47,810 bases of DNA from Candidatus Aegiribacteria sp. Lineage in GTDB: Bacteria > Fermentibacterota > Fermentibacteria > Fermentibacterales > JCC-6. The notes beneath the pieces were generated by a model. That model was not told where the DNA came from and made no database searches. It worked only from the letters and a program-made list of their open reading frames with translations. Position numbers and translations under genes: made by a program. The DNA lies in the NCBI GenBank assembly GCA_030610085.1, contig JAUWSL010000002.1, positions 1-47,810 on the forward strand. The letters run 5' to 3'. Shown in pieces: positions 32,096 through 43,886 of the stretch; position 1 is the first letter of the stretch; each line of letters opens with the position of its first letter.

Positions 32096-32653
32096 TCAAA
32101 CCTGCCCTGGCGATCGCAGTTTGAGATATCTGTCCCGTTCGCTGAAAACGCAGCCGCAGTAAGGCTGCCGGTACATTTCCTCTTCGCGAGATATCCGTAC
32201 GGATTCCCGGTAGGATTCCGTGAAATCTCTGTATATGAACCGCACACCGGTTTTCTCTTCAGCCGCACTTCCTGCTTCAATTATGAATGACTGATTCTGG
32301 TAGGGGCTGACAGAAAGAGTTGTTGAGAAATTCTCTATCCCGAGTTCCGCCGCTTTCAGAGCAGTAGCTGACAGGCGGTCTTCAAAGCAGGCGCAACATC
32401 GATTCTCAGCATCCAGCAGCATCCTGATATTCTCTTCAAGCGGATATTCTTCATCGATCACGAGAGGAATACCCATTGAATCGGTGTAATCCGAGAGCGT
32501 CCGAAGTCTTCTCTCCCTCTCCTTCCACGGGTGTATGTTGGGATTGTAGAAAAAGGCGGTTATTGCGAAACCCTCGCTCTGAAGCTGCTCATATACAGTG
32601 GTCATACAGGGGCCGCAGCATGCATGAAGAAGGAGGGGTTCGTCTGTTCTCAA
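32096..32653 (-). CDS. queH: Epoxyqueuosine reductase QueH (DUF208)
   Basis: Contains LLLHACCGPCMT, FYNPNIHP, RCCACF and YRQPYCGC. Confidence 0.8.
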   Translation of the reverse strand: MRTDEPLLLHACCGPCMTTVYEQLQSEGFAITAFFYNPNIHPWKERERRLRTLSDYTDSMGIPLVIDEEYPLEENIRMLLDAENRCCACFEDRLSATALKAAELGIENFSTTLSVSPYQNQSFIIEAGSAAEEKTGVRFIYRDFTESYRESVRISREEEMYRQPYCGCVFSERDRYLKLRSPGQV

Positions 32654-33681
32654 AGAGGAAGTTCTTCCTGGCTGCTTCGCTTCAGCCCCAGGTGGCGGTA
32701 GGCTTTCATGGTTGTCATTCTGCCTCTGCTGGTCCGGTTGAGAAATCCTGATATCAGCAGATACGGCTCCACAACATCGATCAGGGTATCCTTCTCTTCG
32801 TTAAGTGTTGCAGCCAGAGCTGCAACTCCCACCGGACCGCCGGTATACTGTTTGATGATGATGCTGAGGTACTTTCTATCCAGGCTGTCCAGTCCCGCTT
32901 CATCCACACCGTGAATATCCATGGCCTCAACGGCGACATCCTCGGTAACCGCGTCTTTACTTTCGACCTGGGCGAAATCCCTCGCCCTCTTTAAAAGTCT
33001 GTTGCAGATCCTTGGAGTTCCCCGTGACCGGAGAGCAATGGTCTCGGCTCCACCGGCGGTTATCTCAAGGTTGAGGATACCCGAAGATCTTCTGATAATT
33101 TCCGCAAGTTCACCAGGATTGTAGAACTGCATGTGCAGGGATAAACCAAATCTGTTCCGCAGGGGGCTGGTTATCAGACCCGCGCGGGTGGTGGCACCAA
33201 CGATAGTGAACTCGGCAAGGTCGAGTCTTACAGTCCTGGCAAACGGTCCGGGATCCAGCACAATATCCAGTTTAAAATCCTCCATTGCGGGATACAGGTA
33301 CTCCTCCACCACCCTGGGAAGCCTGTGGATCTCATCTATAAAGAGGATATCCCCCTGCTGAAGGTTGCTCAGAATCCCGACCAGGTCCGCCGCTCTTTCA
33401 AGGGCAGGTCCTGAAGTGCAGACCAGACCGGCATTCATTTCTTTGGATACGATATGGGCCAGTGTGGTTTTTCCCAGTCCTGGAGGTCCGTGGAACAGGA
33501 TGTGATCGAGAGGTTCTCCTCTGCCAAGTGCAGCCTTGATCGCAATTGAAAGCTTCTGTATGACAGCTTCCTGACCGACGTATTCACTCAGATTTTCAGG
33601 CCGGAGAGAAGCCAGTGTACTTTCATCAGCTAACTCATCGATCCTCCGGGATTCGCCGGAGATGATTGATTCTCTGCTCAC
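32650..33681 (-). CDS. ruvB: Holliday junction branch migration helicase RuvB
   Basis: Contains LRPENLSEYVGQE, GPPGLGKTTLA, LFIDEIHRL and GATTR. Confidence 0.95.
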   Translation of the reverse strand: MSRESIISGESRRIDELADESTLASLRPENLSEYVGQEAVIQKLSIAIKAALGRGEPLDHILFHGPPGLGKTTLAHIVSKEMNAGLVCTSGPALERAADLVGILSNLQQGDILFIDEIHRLPRVVEEYLYPAMEDFKLDIVLDPGPFARTVRLDLAEFTIVGATTRAGLITSPLRNRFGLSLHMQFYNPGELAEIIRRSSGILNLEITAGGAETIALRSRGTPRICNRLLKRARDFAQVESKDAVTEDVAVEAMDIHGVDEAGLDSLDRKYLSIIIKQYTGGPVGVAALAATLNEEKDTLIDVVEPYLLISGFLNRTSRGRMTTMKAYRHLGLKRSSQEELPL

Positions 33682-34286
33682 TGTGTGTTCCTTATTCTCA
33701 TGGCACGCTTAACAATTTCCGCTGCTCTGGCATTTTCGTCCAGCTCGCTGCAGGCTTTCTCAACGAGCTCATCAGCCTCAGTCACATGCACGCCAAGCTG
33801 TTTCAGAACTGCTTTTGCCTCACTTGCGGCATCGGAAAGTATTCTCCCGCCTGGGATCACTCCGTACATTTTCTTCATCTGTTCCTGAAGGCCCGCTACT
33901 ATCTGTCTTGCCCTCTTCTTTCCTATTCCGGGCAGGGTCGCAAGGTAGTCGTAGTCCTCGGAAGCTATTGCCGAGGCAATTGCGTGGGGTGGTTTTTCAA
34001 GAGCTTTTACAGCTGCCTTGACTCCCACTCCAGATACCGAAATAAATTTCTCGAAGAATTCTCTGTCTCTAACTTCCCCAAACCCCACTATCAGAGGGAC
34101 AACACGGTTCCCCTCCATCTGAAGATGCAGGTAGACCGGAATATCCACCTCCTGGCCCGCAGATACACTTCTGAAAAAATAACCGGGTGCCAGAATACGT
34201 AATACAATCGGACCGGTCCGTATATAAATAGTGGAATCAGCCGTCTTATCTACTGAGCCTCTAATACTTTCTATCATACTTTTCAC
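33678..34286 (-). CDS. ruvA: Holliday junction DNA-binding protein RuvA
   Basis: Contains MIESIRGSV..., an HhH region LATLPGIGKKRARQI and a C-terminal domain III. The start is probably Met4, at 34277. Confidence 0.9.
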   Translation of the reverse strand: MKSMIESIRGSVDKTADSTIYIRTGPIVLRILAPGYFFRSVSAGQEVDIPVYLHLQMEGNRVVPLIVGFGEVRDREFFEKFISVSGVGVKAAVKALEKPPHAIASAIASEDYDYLATLPGIGKKRARQIVAGLQEQMKKMYGVIPGGRILSDAASEAKAVLKQLGVHVTEADELVEKACSELDENARAAEIVKRAMRIRNTQ

Positions 34287-34767
34287 TTTCGTAAGCAGCT
34301 ATGGCAATTGCAATCGCGTCCGTAACATCATCCGGTTTGATTTCAACGGTCAAGCCCAGCAGATGCCTTACCATGCCTGAAACCTGTTCCTTGCCTGCTC
34401 TTCCGTTACCTGTAACAAGTTTTTTTATCATTGTCGCAGGCAGCGAAACAACAGGCACATTCCGCCGGGCTGCGGCAAGGCAGAATATACCCCTTGCATG
34501 CGCCATTTTTATCGCAGTAGCCGGATGCTTGTAATGAGCAAAGATCTTCTCCAGCCCCATGGCAACGGGTCCGTATTTATCAAGAATCTCCAGAGTTCCG
34601 CAATAGAGTTCATCCAGCCTTACCGGAAGAGGATCATTCGCTTTCGATCTTATCGTGTCACCATCCAGAAGTTCGATGGATCCGGTGGTAAAACGAAGGA
34701 CTCCGTATCCTGTAGTACCAAGTCCGGGATCTATGCCAAGATAGATGGCAGATCCAGATTCAGGCAA
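34261..34767 (-). CDS. ruvC: Crossover junction endodeoxyribonuclease RuvC
   Basis: Contains LGIDPGLGTTGYGVL and a C-terminal DVTDAIAIAI. Confidence 0.9.
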   Translation of the reverse strand: MPESGSAIYLGIDPGLGTTGYGVLRFTTGSIELLDGDTIRSKANDPLPVRLDELYCGTLEILDKYGPVAMGLEKIFAHYKHPATAIKMAHARGIFCLAAARRNVPVVSLPATMIKKLVTGNGRAGKEQVSGMVRHLLGLTVEIKPDDVTDAIAIAIAAYESEKYDRKY

Positions 34768-35496
34768 TTATTCGTCCTGCATTTCAAAATTGGTATGAAT
34801 CGCCTGAACATCATCACTATCCTCAAGTATCTCGAGGAGTTCAAGAGCCTTATCAGCTTCCCTCGCGTTTAATCCGATGTAGATCTCCGGCTCTTTCGTG
34901 ACCTCTGCGCTGTCAGGGATCACACCCATCTCAACCAGTGCGTTCTTCACCTCAAAAACATCTGAGGGAGATGTTGATGCGATGATCACTTCATCAACTT
35001 TCTGGACATCTTCAAGTCCGGCTTCAAGTCCGGCTTCAAGTACCTGATCCTCAGTATAGCGGGTTCCATCAATGACTATCTTTCCAACTCTGTTGAACAT
35101 GTACGCTACACTGTTTCTTGAACCGAGATGACCGCCATGCTTAGAGAGAAGATGTCTTACTTCCGCCGCGGTTCTGTTTTTGTTATCGGTCAGTACTTCG
35201 ATGATTATGGCGACTCCGCCAGGACCGTAGGCTTCGTACGTTATTTCCTCGTAATTGATTCCTTCAAGGTCGCCTGTTCCTCTTTTGACAGCCCGTTCAA
35301 TATTGTCCGAAGGCATATTCTGGGATTTCGCGGTTTCTACCGCAACCCTCAATCGTACATTCGTTTCAACGTCTCCCCCACCCTCCCGTGCGGCAACGGA
35401 TATCTCCTTGACAAGTCTGCTGAAAATTTTACCCCTGGCTGCGTCAGCCTTCTGTTTCTTGTGCTTGATGCTGCTCCATTTATTATGTCCTGACAT
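34768..35496 (-). CDS. yebC: YebC/PmpR-family DNA-binding transcriptional regulator
   Basis: Reads MSGHNKWSSIKHKKQKADAARGKIFSRLVKEISVAAREGGGD...NMPSDNIERAVKRG. Confidence 0.9.
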   Translation of the reverse strand: MSGHNKWSSIKHKKQKADAARGKIFSRLVKEISVAAREGGGDVETNVRLRVAVETAKSQNMPSDNIERAVKRGTGDLEGINYEEITYEAYGPGGVAIIIEVLTDNKNRTAAEVRHLLSKHGGHLGSRNSVAYMFNRVGKIVIDGTRYTEDQVLEAGLEAGLEDVQKVDEVIIASTSPSDVFEVKNALVEMGVIPDSAEVTKEPEIYIGLNAREADKALELLEILEDSDDVQAIHTNFEMQDE

Positions 35497-35585: not shown

Positions 35586-36281
35586 TCAATCGGAAAAATC
35601 CTTGTTCTGCTTGAGTATCTCATCGAAATCATTTATAGCAGCAAAGAGTATTCCAATCTCAGAGCCGTTTATTTTTAAGACTTGCTTTTCGGGCGTGCAC
35701 CCGATGGCGTAAATACCCGCGGAGTGGACTTCTATCTCAAGATCAACGGATGCAAGGAAATCCGATCTATTCACTTCAACACCCAATGCAACCGCACGGG
35801 CAAGCAATGCAGCATCATCCTTTCCAACAGAACCACCGATAATCCTGAACCGCTTTCCATGCTCCGTCTTTTCAGGCAGGAAATTCTCTACGTGCATTCT
35901 TACACCTGTGGAAAGAACTAAGCCAGTTGAAAATGCAGGGAAGACGAACCTTACCTTACGTGAACCGGTATCGGATTCGGCAAGACCTCTTTCGCTGCCT
36001 GTAAACTCCCTGAACCCGCTTCGGGCTGCCATCGAGGATTCCTGACGTATTATACGGTTCCTGATAGTAACGGAAGCATCAACTTTCCAGAAAGGCATTA
36101 AAATTGAATCTGAGCCACCGAGCCGCACGAATTCTATACTGATCGGAGTGAGCTGCTCACCGGAAATCCAGCACCTGCCGCACTCGGAACAGTAGAATAT
36201 CACATCTGTGGAAAGCCCGTCCAGATCACTGCCGCAGTTTGCGCATCTTAGAAGCGTCAGTTCTGAAAGGTCATACCTCAT
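35586..36281 (-). CDS. Zinc-ribbon protein of unknown family (cassette member 4, soluble paralog)
   Basis: C13-x2-C16-x14-C31-x2-C34 (CANC...CSEC), then LMPFWKV. No TM helix. Follows the preceding paralog after a 24-nt gap. Confidence 0.55.
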   Translation of the reverse strand: MRYDLSELTLLRCANCGSDLDGLSTDVIFYCSECGRCWISGEQLTPISIEFVRLGGSDSILMPFWKVDASVTIRNRIIRQESSMAARSGFREFTGSERGLAESDTGSRKVRFVFPAFSTGLVLSTGVRMHVENFLPEKTEHGKRFRIIGGSVGKDDAALLARAVALGVEVNRSDFLASVDLEIEVHSAGIYAIGCTPEKQVLKINGSEIGILFAAINDFDEILKQNKDFSD

Positions 36282-36305
36282 TTAAGAATATCCAACCTTG
36301 TACCT

Positions 36306-37382
36306 TTAATAGATAACATGATCGTTGCCCCTGTCCGTTATTCTGGTAAGTATTTTGAGAAGATGCCAGGTTCCGTAAGCCATGGCCCCCAGAATGAGAA
36401 GAACTGCAGGGAGACAGCTGGACTGTCCTCCCGACATTGTTCTATGATTCAACTTGCCGCTGAATAGAATATCAAATGTGTAGGGCAGAATACCGGCCCA
36501 CAGGAGCGCGGCGGCAACTGTTATTATTTTCCTGTCCCTTCCTGAAGATGGAAATCTTCCCCTTAGAACATTCCCTGAGCGTCCATCAACAACTACCTGG
36601 TACGATCCATCAACGGTTCTGAAATCGGTTATCCACAGAGGATAGTAGACAAGGGCATCCCGATATCCGGAGATAACGATATAATCCCACCTCTCCTCAA
36701 GCCCGAAACCGACACCTGTTCCAAGTCTTCTGAAATATCTGTCTGTCTGAGCATGTGCTCCGGTAACGTTAACTAACGGATCAACGAATACACCATCTCT
36801 GGAACCCTCATCCCCCAGGATCTCCAGCCCGTCAGGAAGAGCATTGCGTTGAATATCAAGCCCCTGTATGGAAAGCTGCGAATCCGCTGAAAGAGTGGGA
36901 ATCCCAAGTGGTTCAAGGTCGGCTGCGCTGATGTTCACGCTTCCGGATAACTGAATCTCCCTTTCAACAGCATTTGATCCTGTTCGGGTTTTTATCTTCC
37001 TTGTGATAGAGACTGAATATCCAGTGGAAGACTGTCCTTCATAATCGACTGCGGGAATCTCTCTCTCATGGTAAACAGGCTCAACTCCAAGTACGTATCC
37101 GTTTACCTGTGCGCTGCAGTGCCAGAAAGGTACATAATAGAGCACCGGTTTGCTTACCCTGGCGTTCTCAATGCTGTCAGGGTTGCTTTTTTTGAGTTCT
37201 CTTCTCACTGACCGCAGAACATCTATACCTGCTGTTTCCGAAGGCAGTACGTACCTGCGTACTGCATTCGGAAGCAGCAGGCTGCTTGCACAGCTTGGGC
37301 ATACCGTGTGTGTATCCCCTTCACGAATACTGAGGGGTCCCGCGCACGATGGACAGGTAAGTGCCACAGATACTTTCTTCAT
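36306..37382 (-). CDS. Zinc-ribbon membrane protein of unknown family (cassette member 3)
   Basis: C10-x2-C13-x14-C28-x2-C31 (CPSC...CPSC). Motifs YYVPFWH and YYPLWITDF...VVVDGRSGNVLRG. Two C-terminal TM helices. The ATG overlaps the upstream stop (ATGA). Confidence 0.6.
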   Translation of the reverse strand: MKKVSVALTCPSCAGPLSIREGDTHTVCPSCASSLLLPNAVRRYVLPSETAGIDVLRSVRRELKKSNPDSIENARVSKPVLYYVPFWHCSAQVNGYVLGVEPVYHEREIPAVDYEGQSSTGYSVSITRKIKTRTGSNAVEREIQLSGSVNISAADLEPLGIPTLSADSQLSIQGLDIQRNALPDGLEILGDEGSRDGVFVDPLVNVTGAHAQTDRYFRRLGTGVGFGLEERWDYIVISGYRDALVYYPLWITDFRTVDGSYQVVVDGRSGNVLRGRFPSSGRDRKIITVAAALLWAGILPYTFDILFSGKLNHRTMSGGQSSCLPAVLLILGAMAYGTWHLLKILTRITDRGNDHVIY

Positions 37383-38074
37383 CTTCTCCCGGCTCTTATC
37401 CTGGAATAATAAAATGCTACTGCCAGAGGGATAATGACTATGAATGTCCAGATCCTGGAAAGCCAGGAATGATCCATATCTTTTGTAAGGAAATAGATGG
37501 GAATCGTGAATACAAGACCGGCACTCAGGGTTACGAGAAAGGTCCTGAAAAGGTTCTGCGCTGAAACCCTCCGTTCTTCTGTAACCGGCAACTCACCTAT
37601 AAGCTTGCCTGATACAGCATCTGCCAGCAATCCCTCACTGTAACCCTCCAGATTCAGCATGACAACATAAAACGGATGGAAGATCACTCTGCCGCAGCTC
37701 TTGCAAGCCATATCTCTGTCAAAAGGAATTAGCTGATCAGGTTCGACCAGGCTTTCATCGAAGACCCTCATGTTTCCTGAAGGAGGAATATAATCCTCGA
37801 GATCCTGCCATGGCTGGTTAAAACAGCGCTGGACCTTCCTGTCAGAGGATATGTCAGTTTCAAGGTAGGGGAAGTACTTCATCTCTACCGACGAGACCAT
37901 ACCAGATGGAAAAAGCCTCCTGACATGCTCCCTGGCAACTGATGGTTCTACCAGCGCCGGAACATTCTCGGGAGGATCAACTATGATCCTGGCTTCACAG
38001 TACGGACACCGCATGAAGAAATCACTCTCGATAACTACCTGCTGAGCTCCGCACTGCGTACAGTTAATTATCAC
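37379..38074 (-). CDS. Zinc-ribbon membrane protein of unknown family (cassette member 2)
   Basis: C5-x2-C8-x14-C23-x2-C26 (CTQC...CPYC). Motifs KYFPYLE and FHPFYVVML...LLADAVSGKLIG. Two C-terminal TM helices. Overlaps the 3' end of the kinase-like gene by 11 nt. Confidence 0.6.
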   Translation of the reverse strand: MIINCTQCGAQQVVIESDFFMRCPYCEARIIVDPPENVPALVEPSVAREHVRRLFPSGMVSSVEMKYFPYLETDISSDRKVQRCFNQPWQDLEDYIPPSGNMRVFDESLVEPDQLIPFDRDMACKSCGRVIFHPFYVVMLNLEGYSEGLLADAVSGKLIGELPVTEERRVSAQNLFRTFLVTLSAGLVFTIPIYFLTKDMDHSWLSRIWTFIVIIPLAVAFYYSRIRAGRR

Positions 38075-39575
38075 TTCTGCTGTCCGCCGAAACGCCTGCA
38101 GGCCTTGACCAGGCCTTCTCAGCTATAGCCACTGCAATGCTGTCGCTCCGGAGAGGTCTTCTTACATACACAATATTCGGATCAGGATTATCAGGTGTAT
38201 GGTAAGATTCGTTAATGACCGCGATCACCTCATGCTCCGTGATAACAGAGCCTTCCAGCCGATCGATCGCCGACAAATAATAATCGTGATCGGCCAGCAG
38301 CATGTTATACTCCGGAACTTCCGTATCCAGTGTAATCGTATCGATATTTATACTTCCCGATGGCAGCTGAGATACTGTACAGCCTATGGCTTCCAGAATT
38401 ATTTCGAGAAATTGAGATTCATGTTCGGCAAAACCTGCGATTGAAACTTTCGGGAAAATATCCCCGGCGGTCTCGGTTACGATCTTCCCGGCTGCGGGCA
38501 GATAGATCGAAAATGTGGATCCCTTCTCAAGTTCAGATTTGACAGTAATATAACCATGATAGTTATTCACAATTGAATATACGGCAGATAATCCAAGACC
38601 TCCCTTCTCACGTCTTGTGGAATAGAAAGGATCAAATATCCTGGTAAGGTTCTGATCGGAGATGCCGCATCCATCATCACTGATAGATATCAAAACGTAA
38701 CTTCCGGCATTCAGAGGTTTGATATCCTCAGATAGATCGACTCTGCAGGCAGCGATTCTTACCGTACCACTCCCGGAGGCAGCTTCAGCGGCATTGATAA
38801 GGAGGTTAACTACTATCTGCTCCACGAGTCCCGGAGGAACACCGGCATAACCCGTTCTGTCAGGGTAAGCCAGTTTGACATCCAGCCCCGGATAAGCGGC
38901 GGTGAGGATATCAAGGCTGCTCCCGATGATATTCCCGACAAGGCATATCTCCGAAGCGATATCAACTGCGTGCTCTCCGGGAGAAAGACTTGCTACCATA
39001 GAGCCGATCCTGCCGATGATCTTCTTTGAATCACGTATTGATCTGAAGACGGCAGCTCTGTCCCTGTGATTTCTGCTTATCCCTGAAAGGCGTGCCATAA
39101 GAACTGTAAGAAGATCATTCAGCCTGCCTGCAATTCCTCCAGCGAGAATCCTTATGGTATCAACTTTCTGGCTTCTCTGAAGTGCAGTGTCTATAAGCGA
39201 TCTTGAACTGGCATTCCTGAAAACCACACTCTCAATGACATTTGAATCCCTGCGCGAACCATAGGCCAGGAAGACAGCTCCCCTTACAAGTCTTTCATCT
39301 CCCTCCCGATGAACGATCACAGAAGCACCTGGAAAATTATAGTATCCATCAGTTGAGAGAACCTCACCTATATCATCAACCAGGGATTTACGGGTATTCT
39401 GATCAATGAAGACACAGACGTCCCACAGATCCTTCCCTTCTGCATCCGAAGTACTGATTCCAGTAAGGCCCTCCGCCTCGGGATTCATAAAGGAAACTCT
39501 TCTATTGGAATCCACAAGTACGACCGCGTCAGTTACTGCTGATAGAAGGGTCCTGATTCCCCTGGATGGCTTCAC
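38064..39575 (-). CDS. PAS-domain histidine-kinase-like protein lacking the phospho-acceptor His, with a degenerate receiver-like C-terminus
   Basis: N-terminal PAS (AVVLVDSNRRVSFMNPEAEGLTG). The DHp helix reads ILAGGIAGRLNDLLTVL, where the consensus is GGIAHDFNNLLT. HATPase_c is intact: N box VNLLINAAEA, G1 DDGCGI, F box FDPFYST, G2 GGLGLS. The roughly 130-aa C-terminal tail resembles a receiver domain but lacks the acidic pocket. GTG start. Confidence 0.75.
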   Translation of the reverse strand: MKPSRGIRTLLSAVTDAVVLVDSNRRVSFMNPEAEGLTGISTSDAEGKDLWDVCVFIDQNTRKSLVDDIGEVLSTDGYYNFPGASVIVHREGDERLVRGAVFLAYGSRRDSNVIESVVFRNASSRSLIDTALQRSQKVDTIRILAGGIAGRLNDLLTVLMARLSGISRNHRDRAAVFRSIRDSKKIIGRIGSMVASLSPGEHAVDIASEICLVGNIIGSSLDILTAAYPGLDVKLAYPDRTGYAGVPPGLVEQIVVNLLINAAEAASGSGTVRIAACRVDLSEDIKPLNAGSYVLISISDDGCGISDQNLTRIFDPFYSTRREKGGLGLSAVYSIVNNYHGYITVKSELEKGSTFSIYLPAAGKIVTETAGDIFPKVSIAGFAEHESQFLEIILEAIGCTVSQLPSGSINIDTITLDTEVPEYNMLLADHDYYLSAIDRLEGSVITEHEVIAVINESYHTPDNPDPNIVYVRRPLRSDSIAVAIAEKAWSRPAGVSADSRSDN

Positions 39576-39597
39576 GGTATCTAGCAGTCTATTTCGA

Positions 39598-41781
39598 TCA
39601 AGGCTGCCTCACAACGACAACTTCCCTGACCTGTCTCAGGTCCGGCGCATCGATCAGGAAGAAGTAGATACCTCCAGGAACTGTATCTCCACGAACATCG
39701 CAGCAGTTCCACTGGACGGTATGTGATCCCACCGCTTCGATCTGAGACGACAGGTCTGCGACCTGCCTGCCTGCGAGGTCATAAACTGCAAGTGAAGTCA
39801 TTCCCTCCGCCGCAGAGGAAATCGTTACAGGAATCGAAGTCATACCTGAGGCTGGATTGGGGCTGACATGGCCGAGGCGGGTCACTCCGACTTCTATTTC
39901 CCCCTCCGAAATACCGGTTGGGTATACCTGCGCCATAACTGCATCTGAAGGCCAGCCTGGGCCGAAATCCGGATCCATCGCCACTGCCCTGTACCAGAAT
40001 TGACCGGTTTCATGGCTTGCGAAAGTATAGGAGTTAATCGGGATACTGAGATCTATGAATTCGTTCTCATCCCAGACCTCGATCTTTATATCATCGATAT
40101 AAAGGTCACTTGAGCTTCCGTTGGTCTCCCATCTGAAACTCAGTGTTTCCCCCTGCCATTCATCCAGTTCATGTATGTTGAGTCTCCAGGTTTCATCTTC
40201 ACGGGTAAAAGTCTGAAGGTAGTACCAGTTGGCTCCGCCGTCGGTTGAAACTTCGATACTGCCCTGACATGAGCCATTGGGAATGTCGTAATAGGCCCAG
40301 AAACTCAGTCTTCCTCCGCCGTTCTCTGGGATTGCGGAGGTGTCGTTCCAGGTCATGGTTCCTGTTCCGGTGGACAGGTAACTGTGCGTTCCCGAGTGGT
40401 GCTGCGAAGTTGTTAAAGTCCAGTTATTGAGTGTGAAAGGCCCACCTGTGCCGTTATCATCAAGGAGGACTTCGTATCCTGCAAGCTCCTGAAGAGCGTA
40501 CGAGTCTGCCTCGGGAACATTGTTCCAGTTAACCGTAAATGGCGGGTTAACCACTCCAATAGCCTCGATCACCGGAATGCCCGGAACATGGGGGTCCGTG
40601 GGGCATCCTGCCAGGAAAGCAGTTACAAGATAGCTTCTGAGATTCCTTCTGGTGAGTTTGACCGTTTCTACAAGAGATGGCCAGAAACCGGCGAAATCCG
40701 CTCCGGTCTCGTGATTCCAGCTCAGGGCGCCGTACAATCCATAGGCGTGATCACGGGTGTTCCCGGCAGACATGTACAATATACCTGCGGACTGCCCGTA
40801 GACCTCACCCGTGCCCCACTGGACCATTATCTCCGCTTGTGTATCGTACACGGCATCGTCAGGAGGAGGATCGTACGTGTAACCCCATGGTCTGATGAGG
40901 ATGTTGCCATAGGTATGCGTAGAATGCATCTGGACGGGAGGATGATCCTGCCAGAAGCTGTCTATGTTACTGGTCTCAGGTTCACTGATGGGACCTTCCC
41001 CTCTGTAGGTGGTGGAGTATGGATCACCGCTGGAGCCTGCACCTCCCCACCCAACCGACCAGTTCCTGTTAAGGTCGATACCATCACCCAGAGTCCAGTT
41101 CATGTTCTTGCGGTGCATTCCTCCGCCGCTCGGAGATATTGTCTCGTTGTAAACGTAGCCGTCAACATTGTTACATGGCAGGCACCAGATCTCACGGTTG
41201 TCAAGCAGCCAGGTAGCCTGCAGACCGCAGAATCCGTTGCGCTCGTAATTATCACAGAGCCACAGCATGAAGAAGCGTACGTTTCGCATGCTGGCAGGCT
41301 CCCTGGCGTGAATGAGGCCGTCGTACCAGACATTCGGGAGAGTGGGGTCATCAGTCCAGAAGTCGTTATTTGAAGAAATTTTGACCACGGTTTGTGGTCT
41401 TCCCTCGAAAGTATCCCCGATCGAAGTAGGTGCGCTCGTAATATTCGGAAAGGTATCGTGCAGGTCATCGAGCCAGAGCGATAGCTCATCCCAGGTTAAG
41501 TATCCTCCCATGGATCTTCCATCGAACCTTCTGCTGTAGAATCTCTCGAGATCATCTATGCGTATATTAAAAGGCATGCCGGTTGCAAGAAGTGAGGCGT
41601 AATCGTGCTCGTTGGCAATACAGTCTACCGAACCATCTTCGTAGACATGCACAACTTCACAGCCTGAACCGATCAGTCTCTGGATCTCGATCTCGTTAAC
41701 GGGTCTGAAGTTCAGAAGAGAATAGCGTTCTGCGGCAACGACAGTGACCGCAACGAAAAGGAACAGCATCAGTTTTCTCAT
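39598..41781 (-). CDS. Secreted multidomain M14-family zinc carboxypeptidase with a T9SS/FlgD-Ig-like C-terminal sorting domain
   Basis: Signal peptide, GLIHAREPAS (HxxE) and MNWTLGDGIDLNRNW. A middle beta-rich domain of about 250 aa. The C-terminus reads VSPNPASG...LAVYDLAGRQV...GGIYFFLI...VVVVRQP. Paralog of the gene at 5777-7240. Confidence 0.8.
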   Translation of the reverse strand: MRKLMLFLFVAVTVVAAERYSLLNFRPVNEIEIQRLIGSGCEVVHVYEDGSVDCIANEHDYASLLATGMPFNIRIDDLERFYSRRFDGRSMGGYLTWDELSLWLDDLHDTFPNITSAPTSIGDTFEGRPQTVVKISSNNDFWTDDPTLPNVWYDGLIHAREPASMRNVRFFMLWLCDNYERNGFCGLQATWLLDNREIWCLPCNNVDGYVYNETISPSGGGMHRKNMNWTLGDGIDLNRNWSVGWGGAGSSGDPYSTTYRGEGPISEPETSNIDSFWQDHPPVQMHSTHTYGNILIRPWGYTYDPPPDDAVYDTQAEIMVQWGTGEVYGQSAGILYMSAGNTRDHAYGLYGALSWNHETGADFAGFWPSLVETVKLTRRNLRSYLVTAFLAGCPTDPHVPGIPVIEAIGVVNPPFTVNWNNVPEADSYALQELAGYEVLLDDNGTGGPFTLNNWTLTTSQHHSGTHSYLSTGTGTMTWNDTSAIPENGGGRLSFWAYYDIPNGSCQGSIEVSTDGGANWYYLQTFTREDETWRLNIHELDEWQGETLSFRWETNGSSSDLYIDDIKIEVWDENEFIDLSIPINSYTFASHETGQFWYRAVAMDPDFGPGWPSDAVMAQVYPTGISEGEIEVGVTRLGHVSPNPASGMTSIPVTISSAAEGMTSLAVYDLAGRQVADLSSQIEAVGSHTVQWNCCDVRGDTVPGGIYFFLIDAPDLRQVREVVVVRQP

Positions 41782-41870
41782 TGGTATCTTCTCCTGTTAA
41801 AAAGAAATAACGTTGATTATTATTAATCATACTATATCAGACATCATGAATATATACATGGGAGGTTTTC

Positions 41871-43886
41871 ATGTCAGTCAGTTTCCGCAGACAGGTTTCT
41901 CATGGAATCCCTGATTCTATCCCTCCTTTCCCCCCCGACCTTCCGGGGGTAAATCATGCACCGTCCAGACCGGATGTATTGACCAAAGAGGAAAAGAAAC
42001 TGGCATTGAAAAATGCATTACGTTATTTCCCGAAGAGATGGCACTCGAAGCTTGCTCCGGAATTCGCGGCTGAGCTGAAGAATGACGGCAGAATATATAT
42101 GCGCAGGTTCAGACCGGATTACGAGATGAAAGCGAGACCAATAAGTGAGTATCCTGCCAGTACACCTGCCGCAGCGGCGATAATGCTGATGATCCAGAAT
42201 AATCTTGACAGCGCGGTTGCCCAGCATCCGCAGGAGCTGATAACCTATGGAGGCAACGGAACGGTTTTCCAGAACTGGGCGCAGTACCTCATTACGATGA
42301 AATACCTGTCAGAGATGACAGAGTATCAGACCCTGGTACTCAACTCGGGGCATCCACTTGGCCTGTTTCCTTCACATCCGGGGGCACCCAGGCTGGTACT
42401 TACGAACGGCATGGTAATACCGAACTACAGTTCAAGGGAAGACTACGACAGAATGGCTGCCCTTGGTGTAACATCGTACGGACAGATGACCGCAGGAAGT
42501 TTCATGTACATAGGTCCCCAGGGAATCGTTCACGGCACAACCATCACGCTTCTGAATGCCGGAAGAAAGTACCTCGGATTGCCGCCCGAAGCGGACCTTT
42601 CGGGCAAACTGTTCGTTACTTCAGGACTTGGAGGCATGAGCGGAGCCCAGGCGAAGGCTTCGGTTATTGCAGGTGCGGTCTGCGTAATCGCCGAGATCAA
42701 CCCCAAAGCGATAAGAACAAGATACGAACAGGGATGGCTTCAGGAGATTGAGAACGATCTTGACAGGGTTCTTCGAAGAATTGAGAAGGCGCGCAGAGCA
42801 GGAGAGGCTCTCTCTCTAGGGTACACGGGAAATATTGTGGACCTGTGGGAAAAACTTGCTGAAGAAGGTGTTCCCGTTGACCTTGGGAGTGATCAGACCT
42901 CACTTCATAATCCGTTTCTTGGCGGTTATTATCCAGTCGGTCTCACCCTTGCGGAATCGAACAGCATGATGGTTGAGAATCAGGAGGGATTCAGAGAAGC
43001 GGTGCGCGAATCACTTCGAAGACAGGTCAGGGCGATAAACACACTTCATGAGAGCGGGATGTTCTTCTGGGATTACGGCAACGCCTTCCTCCTTGAAGCA
43101 TCCAGAGCCGGTGCGCAGGGCATTCTCCGTAAGGATGGAACATTCGCTTACCCCTCCTACGTCGAGGATATCATGGGTCCGATCTGTTTCGATTACGGAT
43201 TCGGTCCCTTCAGATGGGTCTGCACTTCCGGTGATCACGAAGACCTTGAGAAAACCGACATGATCGCTGCCGGTGTGCTTGAGGATATGGCGAAGGAAGC
43301 CGACCAGGAGATAAAACTTCAGATCCTGGACAATATACGATGGATAAAACAGGCTGATGAAAACAGGATGGTGGTGGGCTCCCAGGCCAGGATACTCTAC
43401 GCTGACAGGCAGGGGAGAATTAAAATCGCAAAAGCCTTCAACGACGCGATCGCAAGTGCCCGGATCACTGCTCCGATAGTCCTCGGCAGGGACCATCACG
43501 ACGTTTCCGGAACGGATTCCCCCTTCCGCGAAACCGCGAATATAAGGGACGGAAGCATGTTCACAGCTGACATGGCTGTTCAGAATGTCATCGGTGATTC
43601 ATTCAGAGGTGCAACCTGGGTATCCCTGCATAACGGTGGAGGAGTAGGCTGGGGTGAGGTGATCAACGGTGGATTCGGCCTGCTTCTTGATGGTTCGCCA
43701 GAAGCGGCGGAACTGGCATCGGGCATGCTCAGCTGGGATGTCTCCAACGGACTGGCAAGAAGATCCTGGGCCAGAAATCACGGAGCCATCTACGCTGTAA
43801 AGAAAGCTATGGAAGCGGAGCCCAATATGAAAATAACCATACCATCAATTGCCGATGATGCTGTACTTGAAGGTCTATTCGAGTGA
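41871..43886 (+). CDS. hutU: Urocanate hydratase (long form)
   Basis: 671 aa. Contains ELITYGGNGTVFQNW, GQMTAGSFMYIGPQGIVHGT, TSGLGGMSGAQ, SLHNGGGVGWG and RDHHDVSGTDSPFRET. A GGGAGG Shine-Dalgarno box precedes the ATG. Confidence 0.92.
   Translation: MSVSFRRQVSHGIPDSIPPFPPDLPGVNHAPSRPDVLTKEEKKLALKNALRYFPKRWHSKLAPEFAAELKNDGRIYMRRFRPDYEMKARPISEYPASTPAAAAIMLMIQNNLDSAVAQHPQELITYGGNGTVFQNWAQYLITMKYLSEMTEYQTLVLNSGHPLGLFPSHPGAPRLVLTNGMVIPNYSSREDYDRMAALGVTSYGQMTAGSFMYIGPQGIVHGTTITLLNAGRKYLGLPPEADLSGKLFVTSGLGGMSGAQAKASVIAGAVCVIAEINPKAIRTRYEQGWLQEIENDLDRVLRRIEKARRAGEALSLGYTGNIVDLWEKLAEEGVPVDLGSDQTSLHNPFLGGYYPVGLTLAESNSMMVENQEGFREAVRESLRRQVRAINTLHESGMFFWDYGNAFLLEASRAGAQGILRKDGTFAYPSYVEDIMGPICFDYGFGPFRWVCTSGDHEDLEKTDMIAAGVLEDMAKEADQEIKLQILDNIRWIKQADENRMVVGSQARILYADRQGRIKIAKAFNDAIASARITAPIVLGRDHHDVSGTDSPFRETANIRDGSMFTADMAVQNVIGDSFRGATWVSLHNGGGVGWGEVINGGFGLLLDGSPEAAELASGMLSWDVSNGLARRSWARNHGAIYAVKKAMEAEPNMKITIPSIADDAVLEGLFE

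Follow-up and report, generated by a model that had tools for sequence, protein, structure and literature searches.

In Bacillus subtilis, the pspA-ydjGHI (samGHI) operon is controlled by sigmaW. To our knowledge, what has so far been learned of YdjG/SamG comes from Bacillus genetics alone, and no Pfam model describes its central domain. YdjG has been described as two zinc ribbons, a YpeB-related NTF2-like domain and a transmembrane (TM) segment (Ravi et al. 2024, PMC11237479). The pspA-ydjGHI operon encodes both this zinc-ribbon membrane protein and YdjI, in which Band_7_1 is joined to a C-terminal zinc finger (PMC8581546, PMC9239133). YdjG and YdjH interact, and both are required for YdjI, a soluble SPFH protein, and through it PspA, to form foci at the membrane (PMC8581546). 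SamG and SamH have been proposed to form a membrane stress sensor that is restrained by the SPFH protein (2026 preprint, bioRxiv 10.64898/2026.02.06.704340). Here, we compare with this system a locus of Candidatus Aegiribacteria (Fermentibacterota), located on a 47,810-nucleotide (nt) stretch of contig JAUWSL010000002.1, hereafter the window. Three consecutive genes of the locus encode the zinc-ribbon proteins A, B and C (together, the trio; Table 1) and are preceded by a gene for a histidine kinase-like protein. The first-pass annotation of the window had treated the four genes as one cassette, possibly a novel signalling or membrane-associated machine, whose zinc-ribbon proteins could not be assigned to any named family. 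We find that the trio is of the YdjG/SamG kind rather than a categorically new machine and that the kinase-like gene accompanies it only in Aegiribacteria.

The YdjG query sequence was confirmed by exact look-up as 'PspA localization factor YdjG, YDJG_BACSU', and its ends fit the published cloning primers. The B profile matches YdjG both in hmmsearch (44.9 bits) and in hhalign (96.8%, E 2e-10), the latter over 236 collinear columns covering YdjG 51-312, so B is no longer without a named family. The aligned YdjG region extends from the second ribbon through 'MYIPFW' and 'LLPVWMVSYDY...NGQTGKVVGKPP' as far as the TM helix. For the central domain, the match is direct in B and limited to the first strand in C, whereas the A profile has no hmmsearch match to YdjG and A is connected to it only via B, of which it is a full-length paralog (profile-profile hhalign, 97.4%, E 1e-11, 182 columns). 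A match to a characterized family was thus found in a mild form, which holds for B itself, for A through B and for C in part. Shared with YdjG are the N-terminal Cys4 zinc ribbon, which A, B and C all have, the collinear central domain and its two Y/L-x-P-h-W strands, the 'DG/NG-x-[ST]-G-x-V-h-x-G-x-x-P' motif immediately ahead of the membrane anchor, and the C-terminal TM anchor of A and B, C having none. Moreover, relatives of the trio in other phyla are linked to a Band_7_1 SPFH gene, as described below. As judged by profile comparison, the trio proteins are distant relatives of YdjG/SamG and not orphans.

The trio is conserved far beyond Aegiribacteria. B homologues were traced to contigs and to one genome per GTDB species, and all open reading frames (ORFs) of 88 fetched loci were scored with the A, B and C profiles. 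Contig ends leave 80 of these loci intact, and 79 of the 80 (all but L055) have, on one strand, an A-like gene followed by B and then by a C-like gene, so the co-occurrence of the three zinc-ribbon genes on which the first-pass annotation depended is real. Such loci are found in Fermentibacterota, Ignavibacteria/Bacteroidota, Chloroflexota, Acidobacteriota and archaea (Methanoperedens, ANME-2, Methanosarcinales). B relatives are encoded by 366 GTDB species genomes, and an exhaustive search with the B profile collected 5,221 cluster representatives (50% identity) at E <= 1e-3, including 1,517 at E <= 1e-10. Scans of A, B and C against Pfam, NCBIfam, PADLOC and PHROGs gave only sub-threshold zinc-ribbon matches, in line with the first-pass view that no existing model describes them. 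Likewise, no Pfam family apart from zinc ribbons covers the B-family region in 44 diverse members, and profile searches against PDB sequences with three alignments, those of the B and C families among them, returned zinc ribbons or coiled-coil noise only. The conserved unit is the trio A-B-C and not the set of four genes, and it represents a genuine, widespread, database-unannotated module found from bacteria to archaea.

Two further features of the family were noted. A Ser/Thr protein-kinase domain and an AAA_16 STAND-type ATPase domain each occur in one of the 44 diverse B-family members, presumably among the longer ones of 500-600 amino acids (aa; P0240, P0243, P0274, P0326, P0313). A gene for a Uma2-family endonuclease sits between A and B of one Ignavibacteria trio (L002:7362-7937).

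Outside Fermentibacterota, neighbourhood clustering of 55 loci revealed 31 in which the trio comes immediately after a Band_7_1 SPFH gene similar to that of YdjI. This partner was found in Ignavibacteria, Acidobacteriota and Methanoperedens loci. In Ignavibacteria it consists of PF13421 (E 2e-55) and SHOCT, and in Methanoperedenaceae Band_7_1 is followed by a C-terminal double zinc ribbon, i.e. the archaeal partner has the architecture of YdjI/SamI (Band_7_1, PF13421). The C-terminal tail of the SPFH protein therefore differs by lineage (double zinc ribbon in L045:4047-5228 vs SHOCT in L050:4108-5109). Upstream of the SPFH gene, 25 of the 55 loci have a gene for an all-helical protein of ~176 aa (e.g. 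L086:3377-3907, L081:2436-2966), which weakly resembles NCBIfam LIMLP_15305, a Leptospira family of unknown function. Its identification as PspA was rejected, hhalign giving no support. PspA itself was not matched among all locus ORFs in a phmmer search, which is a weak test made with one B. subtilis PspA sequence whose ends fit published primers, and the neighbourhood clustering contained no conserved TPM-like (ydjH) cluster.

The four co-directional ORFs of the window, their overlaps and gaps, and the three N-terminal CxxC-x14-CxxC ribbons were exactly as first described when the coordinates were re-checked. The ribbons are real and not chance features, because their Cys residues are invariant in the homologue alignments and in the 44 highly diverse B-family members. 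Hydropathy also agrees with the earlier assignment of two TM helices at the ends of A (~175-196 and ~203-226) and B (289-307 and 327-345) and of a soluble C; the two C-terminal helices of B are present in its AlphaFold2 (AF2) model as well, and no TM segment is predicted by hydropathy in C or in the kinase-like protein. Public gene calls for A are often 12-20 codons late (211- or 219-aa forms, e.g. P0145) and cut off the first ribbon CxxC; with the GTG at 38074 as start, both the full ribbon and the 11-nt overlap with the kinase-like gene are recovered.

Table 1. Coordinates of the trio, the kinase-like gene and their domains and junctions in the window
Feature	Position	Strand	Description
Kinase-like gene	38064..39575	-	503 aa; soluble PAS-DHp-HATPase, degenerate CckA/hybrid-type histidine kinase
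Protein A gene	37379..38074	-	231 aa, GTG start; zinc ribbon, YdjG-like alpha/beta domain, 2 TM
Protein B gene	36306..37382	-	358 aa; zinc ribbon, YdjG-like alpha/beta domain with two Y-x-P-h-W strands, 2 TM
Protein C gene	35586..36281	-	231 aa, soluble; zinc ribbon, one 'PFW' strand, family-specific C-terminal domain
Zinc ribbon of A	37997..38062	-	C5, C8, C23, C26; invariant columns in family alignment
Zinc ribbon of B	37290..37355	-	C10, C13, C28, C31; invariant in 44 diverse family members
Zinc ribbon of C	36180..36245	-	C13, C16, C31, C34; invariant in C alignment, nearly so across phyla
PAS domain (kinase-like protein)	39387..39554	-	aa 8-63; PF00989 E 3.7e-7, PF13188 E 7.9e-5
H-box phospho-acceptor position (kinase-like protein)	39126..39128	-	Gly150 codon; alignment to CckA 5IDJ
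HATPase_c (kinase-like protein)	38493..38825	-	aa 251-361; PF02518 E 4.3e-21; N, G1, F and G2 motifs kept
C-terminal domain (kinase-like protein)	38091..38453	-	~120 aa, possibly degenerate receiver-like; PDB profile match E 0.1 only
M14 peptidase gene/kinase-like gene junction	39576..39597		22-nt gap
Kinase-like gene/A junction	38064..38074		11-nt overlap
A/B junction	37379..37382		4-nt ATGA overlap
B/C junction	36282..36305		24-nt gap

The first-pass description of A, B and C as three paralogs needs qualification. All three are related, but they are not equal paralogues, as C has only the N-terminal module in common with the others. Indeed, the similarity of C to B is limited to the ribbon and the first 'PFW' strand (hhalign, 94%, E 1e-7, 69 columns), and the comparison of the A and C profiles gave no direct significant match. 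The remainder of C is a C-terminal domain specific to the C family, in which W65, A116, E169 and D174 are invariant in the cross-phylum alignment. The AF2 model of B, with a predicted local distance difference test (pLDDT) score of 77.5, contains a helix and a long hairpin followed by a helix and three strands. The two halves of the B domain, aa 40-160 and 196-282, each with a helix and a 'Y-x-P-h-W' strand, align weakly with one another (hhalign local, 60%, E 9e-5), which suggests an internal duplication in the cytoplasmic domain.

On balance, we consider it probable that A, B and C form a conserved assembly of three subunits, cytoplasmic but anchored in the membrane, that belongs to the YdjG/SamG family, because the homology to YdjG, the repeated linkage to SPFH genes in distant phyla and the architecture of the subunits all point in this direction. 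A and B would each expose to the cytoplasm an N-terminal ribbon, followed by an alpha/beta domain of two 'helix + Y-x-P-h-W hairpin' units and a two-helix anchor, while C would be the soluble partner, with a ribbon and one helix/hairpin unit ahead of its own domain. By analogy to YdjG/YdjH, the complex would most likely be a platform for docking or sensing on the cytoplasmic side of the membrane; soluble membrane-maintenance factors of the SPFH/Band-7 type would be recruited there or regulated by it. In Aegiribacteria, a soluble PAS-DHp-ATPase protein appears to have been inserted directly upstream of the trio, overlapping A by 11 nt, and this translationally coupled, His-less PAS-ATPase would be the most plausible client or regulator. 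E. coli PspB/PspC, small membrane stress sensors that steer a soluble inner-face effector (bioRxiv 10.64898/2026.02.06.704340), offer a functional analogy only: they have no similarity to the trio in sequence or architecture, and neither PspA nor PspF is involved here.

Several points weigh against such an assembly. YdjG has two ribbons and one TM helix, whereas the trio proteins have one ribbon each and A and B two TM helices each; moreover, YdjG is the product of a single gene accompanied by pspA and the gene for the TPM-domain protein YdjH, unlike the three genes of the window, which have neither ydjH nor pspA beside them. The identity of YdjG to the B family is ~19%, i.e. remote, and was obtained with a single Bacillus sequence against a profile. 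Foldseek found nothing significant in the PDB for the model of B (best E 0.12), and the AF2 model of C, made from Fermentibacterota-only sequences, was unusable (pLDDT 43.7); the NTF2/PepSY-like fold is therefore a literature assignment, and Pfam PepSY matches none of A, B and C. The 47.8-kb window, the Fermentibacterota loci examined and the surroundings of the Chloroflexota trios have no SPFH, ~176-aa helical or PspA-like gene, so that the functional link rests on other phyla. Finally, homology, conserved gene order, the SPFH linkage in other phyla and the loss of His are observed, whereas complex formation, topology, the membrane-stress role and any interaction between the trio and the kinase are what we infer, the association of A, B and C with one another and with the kinase-like protein being predicted.

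A broader version of the assembly can be put forward tentatively. The trio may be an ancient, self-sufficient complex for membrane-stress sensing or anchoring, common to bacteria and archaea, older than PspA and independent of it, to which different lineages have attached their own soluble output modules. These modules would be SPFH proteins in Ignavibacteria and Methanoperedens, the His-less pseudo-kinase in Aegiribacteria and, rarely, fused Ser/Thr-kinase or STAND-ATPase domains. If this is true, the trio would typify a general 'docking hub' family not yet represented in domain databases. The large unannotated family defined here, with ~5,200 clusters, places the Bacillus account of PspA/SPFH anchoring in a far wider evolutionary frame of hundreds of species in at least five phyla, archaea included. 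It also offers conserved residues for mutation, namely, the four Cys, the two P-h-W strands, the DG-x-SG motif and E169/D174 of C.

The kinase-like protein aligns with NCBIfam kinase models over aa 119-368. The residue corresponding to the phospho-acceptor His is a Tyr in one known relative of such kinases, DivL (4Q20). The DHp and CA domains of the kinase-like protein align with those of CckA 5IDJ (E 6e-24), DivL being matched as well, and in the H-box 'LAGGIAGRLNDLL' stands opposite 'LAGGVAHDFNNLL' of CckA (core 'GGIAGRLNDLL' vs 'GGVAHDFNNLL'), with Gly150 in place of the phospho-His. The PAS-HATPase kinase without a canonical His reported in the first-pass annotation is thus confirmed, and in lacking this residue the protein resembles DivL. 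By contrast, the ATP-binding motifs NLLINAAEA, DDGCGI, FDPFYST and GGLGLS are conserved in the orthologues. Of the 12 orthologues aligned, three have His in the H-box and the others G, A, D, S or Q; the branch that keeps His (L017:2062-3594, L018:3772-5307, L026:3772-5307) reads 'EGVAHNLDD' at this site. Since one Aegiribacteria branch retains His while its sister branches vary, the alignment indicates a recent loss of the phospho-acceptor, either repeated or relaxed. The pattern, as read from these sequences, is that of a kinase recently stripped of phosphotransfer but retaining nucleotide binding, a natural case of a histidine kinase losing its phospho-acceptor with His retained in one branch.

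The DHp and CA domains, the PAS input and the possibly degenerate receiver-like tail are reminiscent of CckA-type hybrid kinases. For the tail (~120 aa), a profile of 11 orthologues had its best PDB match at E 0.1 only, to 2B4A (deposited as BH3024), which we take to be a receiver-domain structure. The tail has a conserved Asp after a hydrophobic strand ('LLAD') and a conserved '[KR]P' after a later one but lacks the acidic pocket, and Pfam Response_reg does not match the kinase-like protein. Unlike CckA, the protein is soluble, has Gly at the acceptor site and is encoded without an adjoining response-regulator gene that could be its cognate. It is probably an ATP-binding pseudo-kinase that docks on the trio or is regulated by it, and not a phospho-relay kinase.

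Orthologues of the kinase-like gene lie directly upstream of A only in an Aegiribacteria sub-clade, where phmmer found them in 13 loci with a B identity of at least 61%. None stands beside the trio in the remaining Fermentibacterota loci or in any of the 55 loci of other phyla. The M14 peptidase gene abuts the trio in L004 and L022-L025 and is separated from it by glycosyltransferase or pyruvyl-transferase genes in L003 and L027-L032. A large GAF/PAS kinase encoded upstream of M14 in L004 was considered as the ancestor of the 503-aa protein and rejected, the 34% identity being confined to the ATPase domain. The kinase-like gene is a late, lineage-specific add-on to the trio, and the 'four-gene cassette' of the first-pass annotation exists as such only in these 13 loci.

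This distribution bears on the possibility that the four genes constitute one novel signalling machine with the PAS/ATPase pseudo-kinase as its integral, defining subunit, which we regard as unlikely. The 11-nt overlap with A, the constant position of the gene in the 13 species loci of the Aegiribacteria clade and the conserved ATP-binding motifs would all fit such a machine, as would the pairs of an OmpR-type response regulator and a HAMP histidine kinase that occur 1-3 genes from the trio in several loci. However, the absence of the kinase-like gene from most trio loci implies that the trio works without it. Furthermore, the two-component systems nearby in other phyla contain ordinary, His-containing TM kinases of a different type, at a frequency compatible with chance. 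The OmpR/HAMP pairs are found in several unrelated phyla (L001 (11328-13573), L006 (4067-5971), L007, L008, L061, L064, L069, L085, L088) and, such pairs being common, their presence may be coincidental. The earlier suggestion of a novel machine is accordingly replaced by the relation of the trio to YdjG/SamG through the B profile and by the confinement of the kinase to Aegiribacteria.

The wider surroundings of the trio show phylum-wide synteny in Fermentibacterota, with urocanase on the opposite strand, the M14 peptidase, the trio and YebC-RuvC-RuvA-RuvB-QueH (window 32650-35496, 39598-43886). The M14 gene precedes either the trio or the kinase-like gene and trio in essentially all loci of the phylum, and its product carries a weak sorting tail of the type IX secretion system (T9SS). 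It is very improbable that the trio serves this secreted carboxypeptidase, e.g. in membrane processing or export as T9SS cargo, given that no M14 gene is found beside the trio in Ignavibacteria, Chloroflexota, Acidobacteriota or archaea, that the ribbon domains are predicted to be cytoplasmic and that transferase genes intervene in the seven loci mentioned above. Slightly less credible still is a role in DNA recombination or repair with the downstream YebC-RuvC-RuvA-RuvB, in which the ribbons would bind nucleic acid. Although these genes lie downstream on the same strand across Fermentibacterota and zinc ribbons are commonly nucleic-acid binders, the synteny is restricted to this phylum, and 89 nt containing a promoter-like site separate C from yebC (the promoter and terminator scan as a whole was at chance level and says nothing on operon limits). 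Moreover, A and B are membrane proteins, and their homologue YdjG acts at the membrane (PMC8581546). The least credible proposal, an anti-phage defence or abortive-infection membrane system, draws on an architecture of zinc ribbon and two TM helices reminiscent of some defence effectors and on PemK toxin genes near the trio in L006 and L045, but PADLOC gave nothing above noise, the neighbourhood is a stable, housekeeping one conserved vertically through a phylum, and B relatives were not found in the viral contigs scanned.

Two structural observations on the model of B remain to be mentioned. Its long hairpins draw beta-pore-forming toxins in the Foldseek search of the PDB, at E > 0.1 only. 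Against predicted viral structures, Foldseek returned two strong giant-virus matches, both named 'DnaJ-like subfamily C member 3', from Yasminevirus (A0A5K0UBJ7, E 1e-8) and Edafosvirus (A0A3G4ZSZ8, E 4e-7), with 259-349 aligned columns. As far as these predicted structures indicate, Klosneuvirinae may have proteins in which a YdjG-like fold is joined to J-domains.

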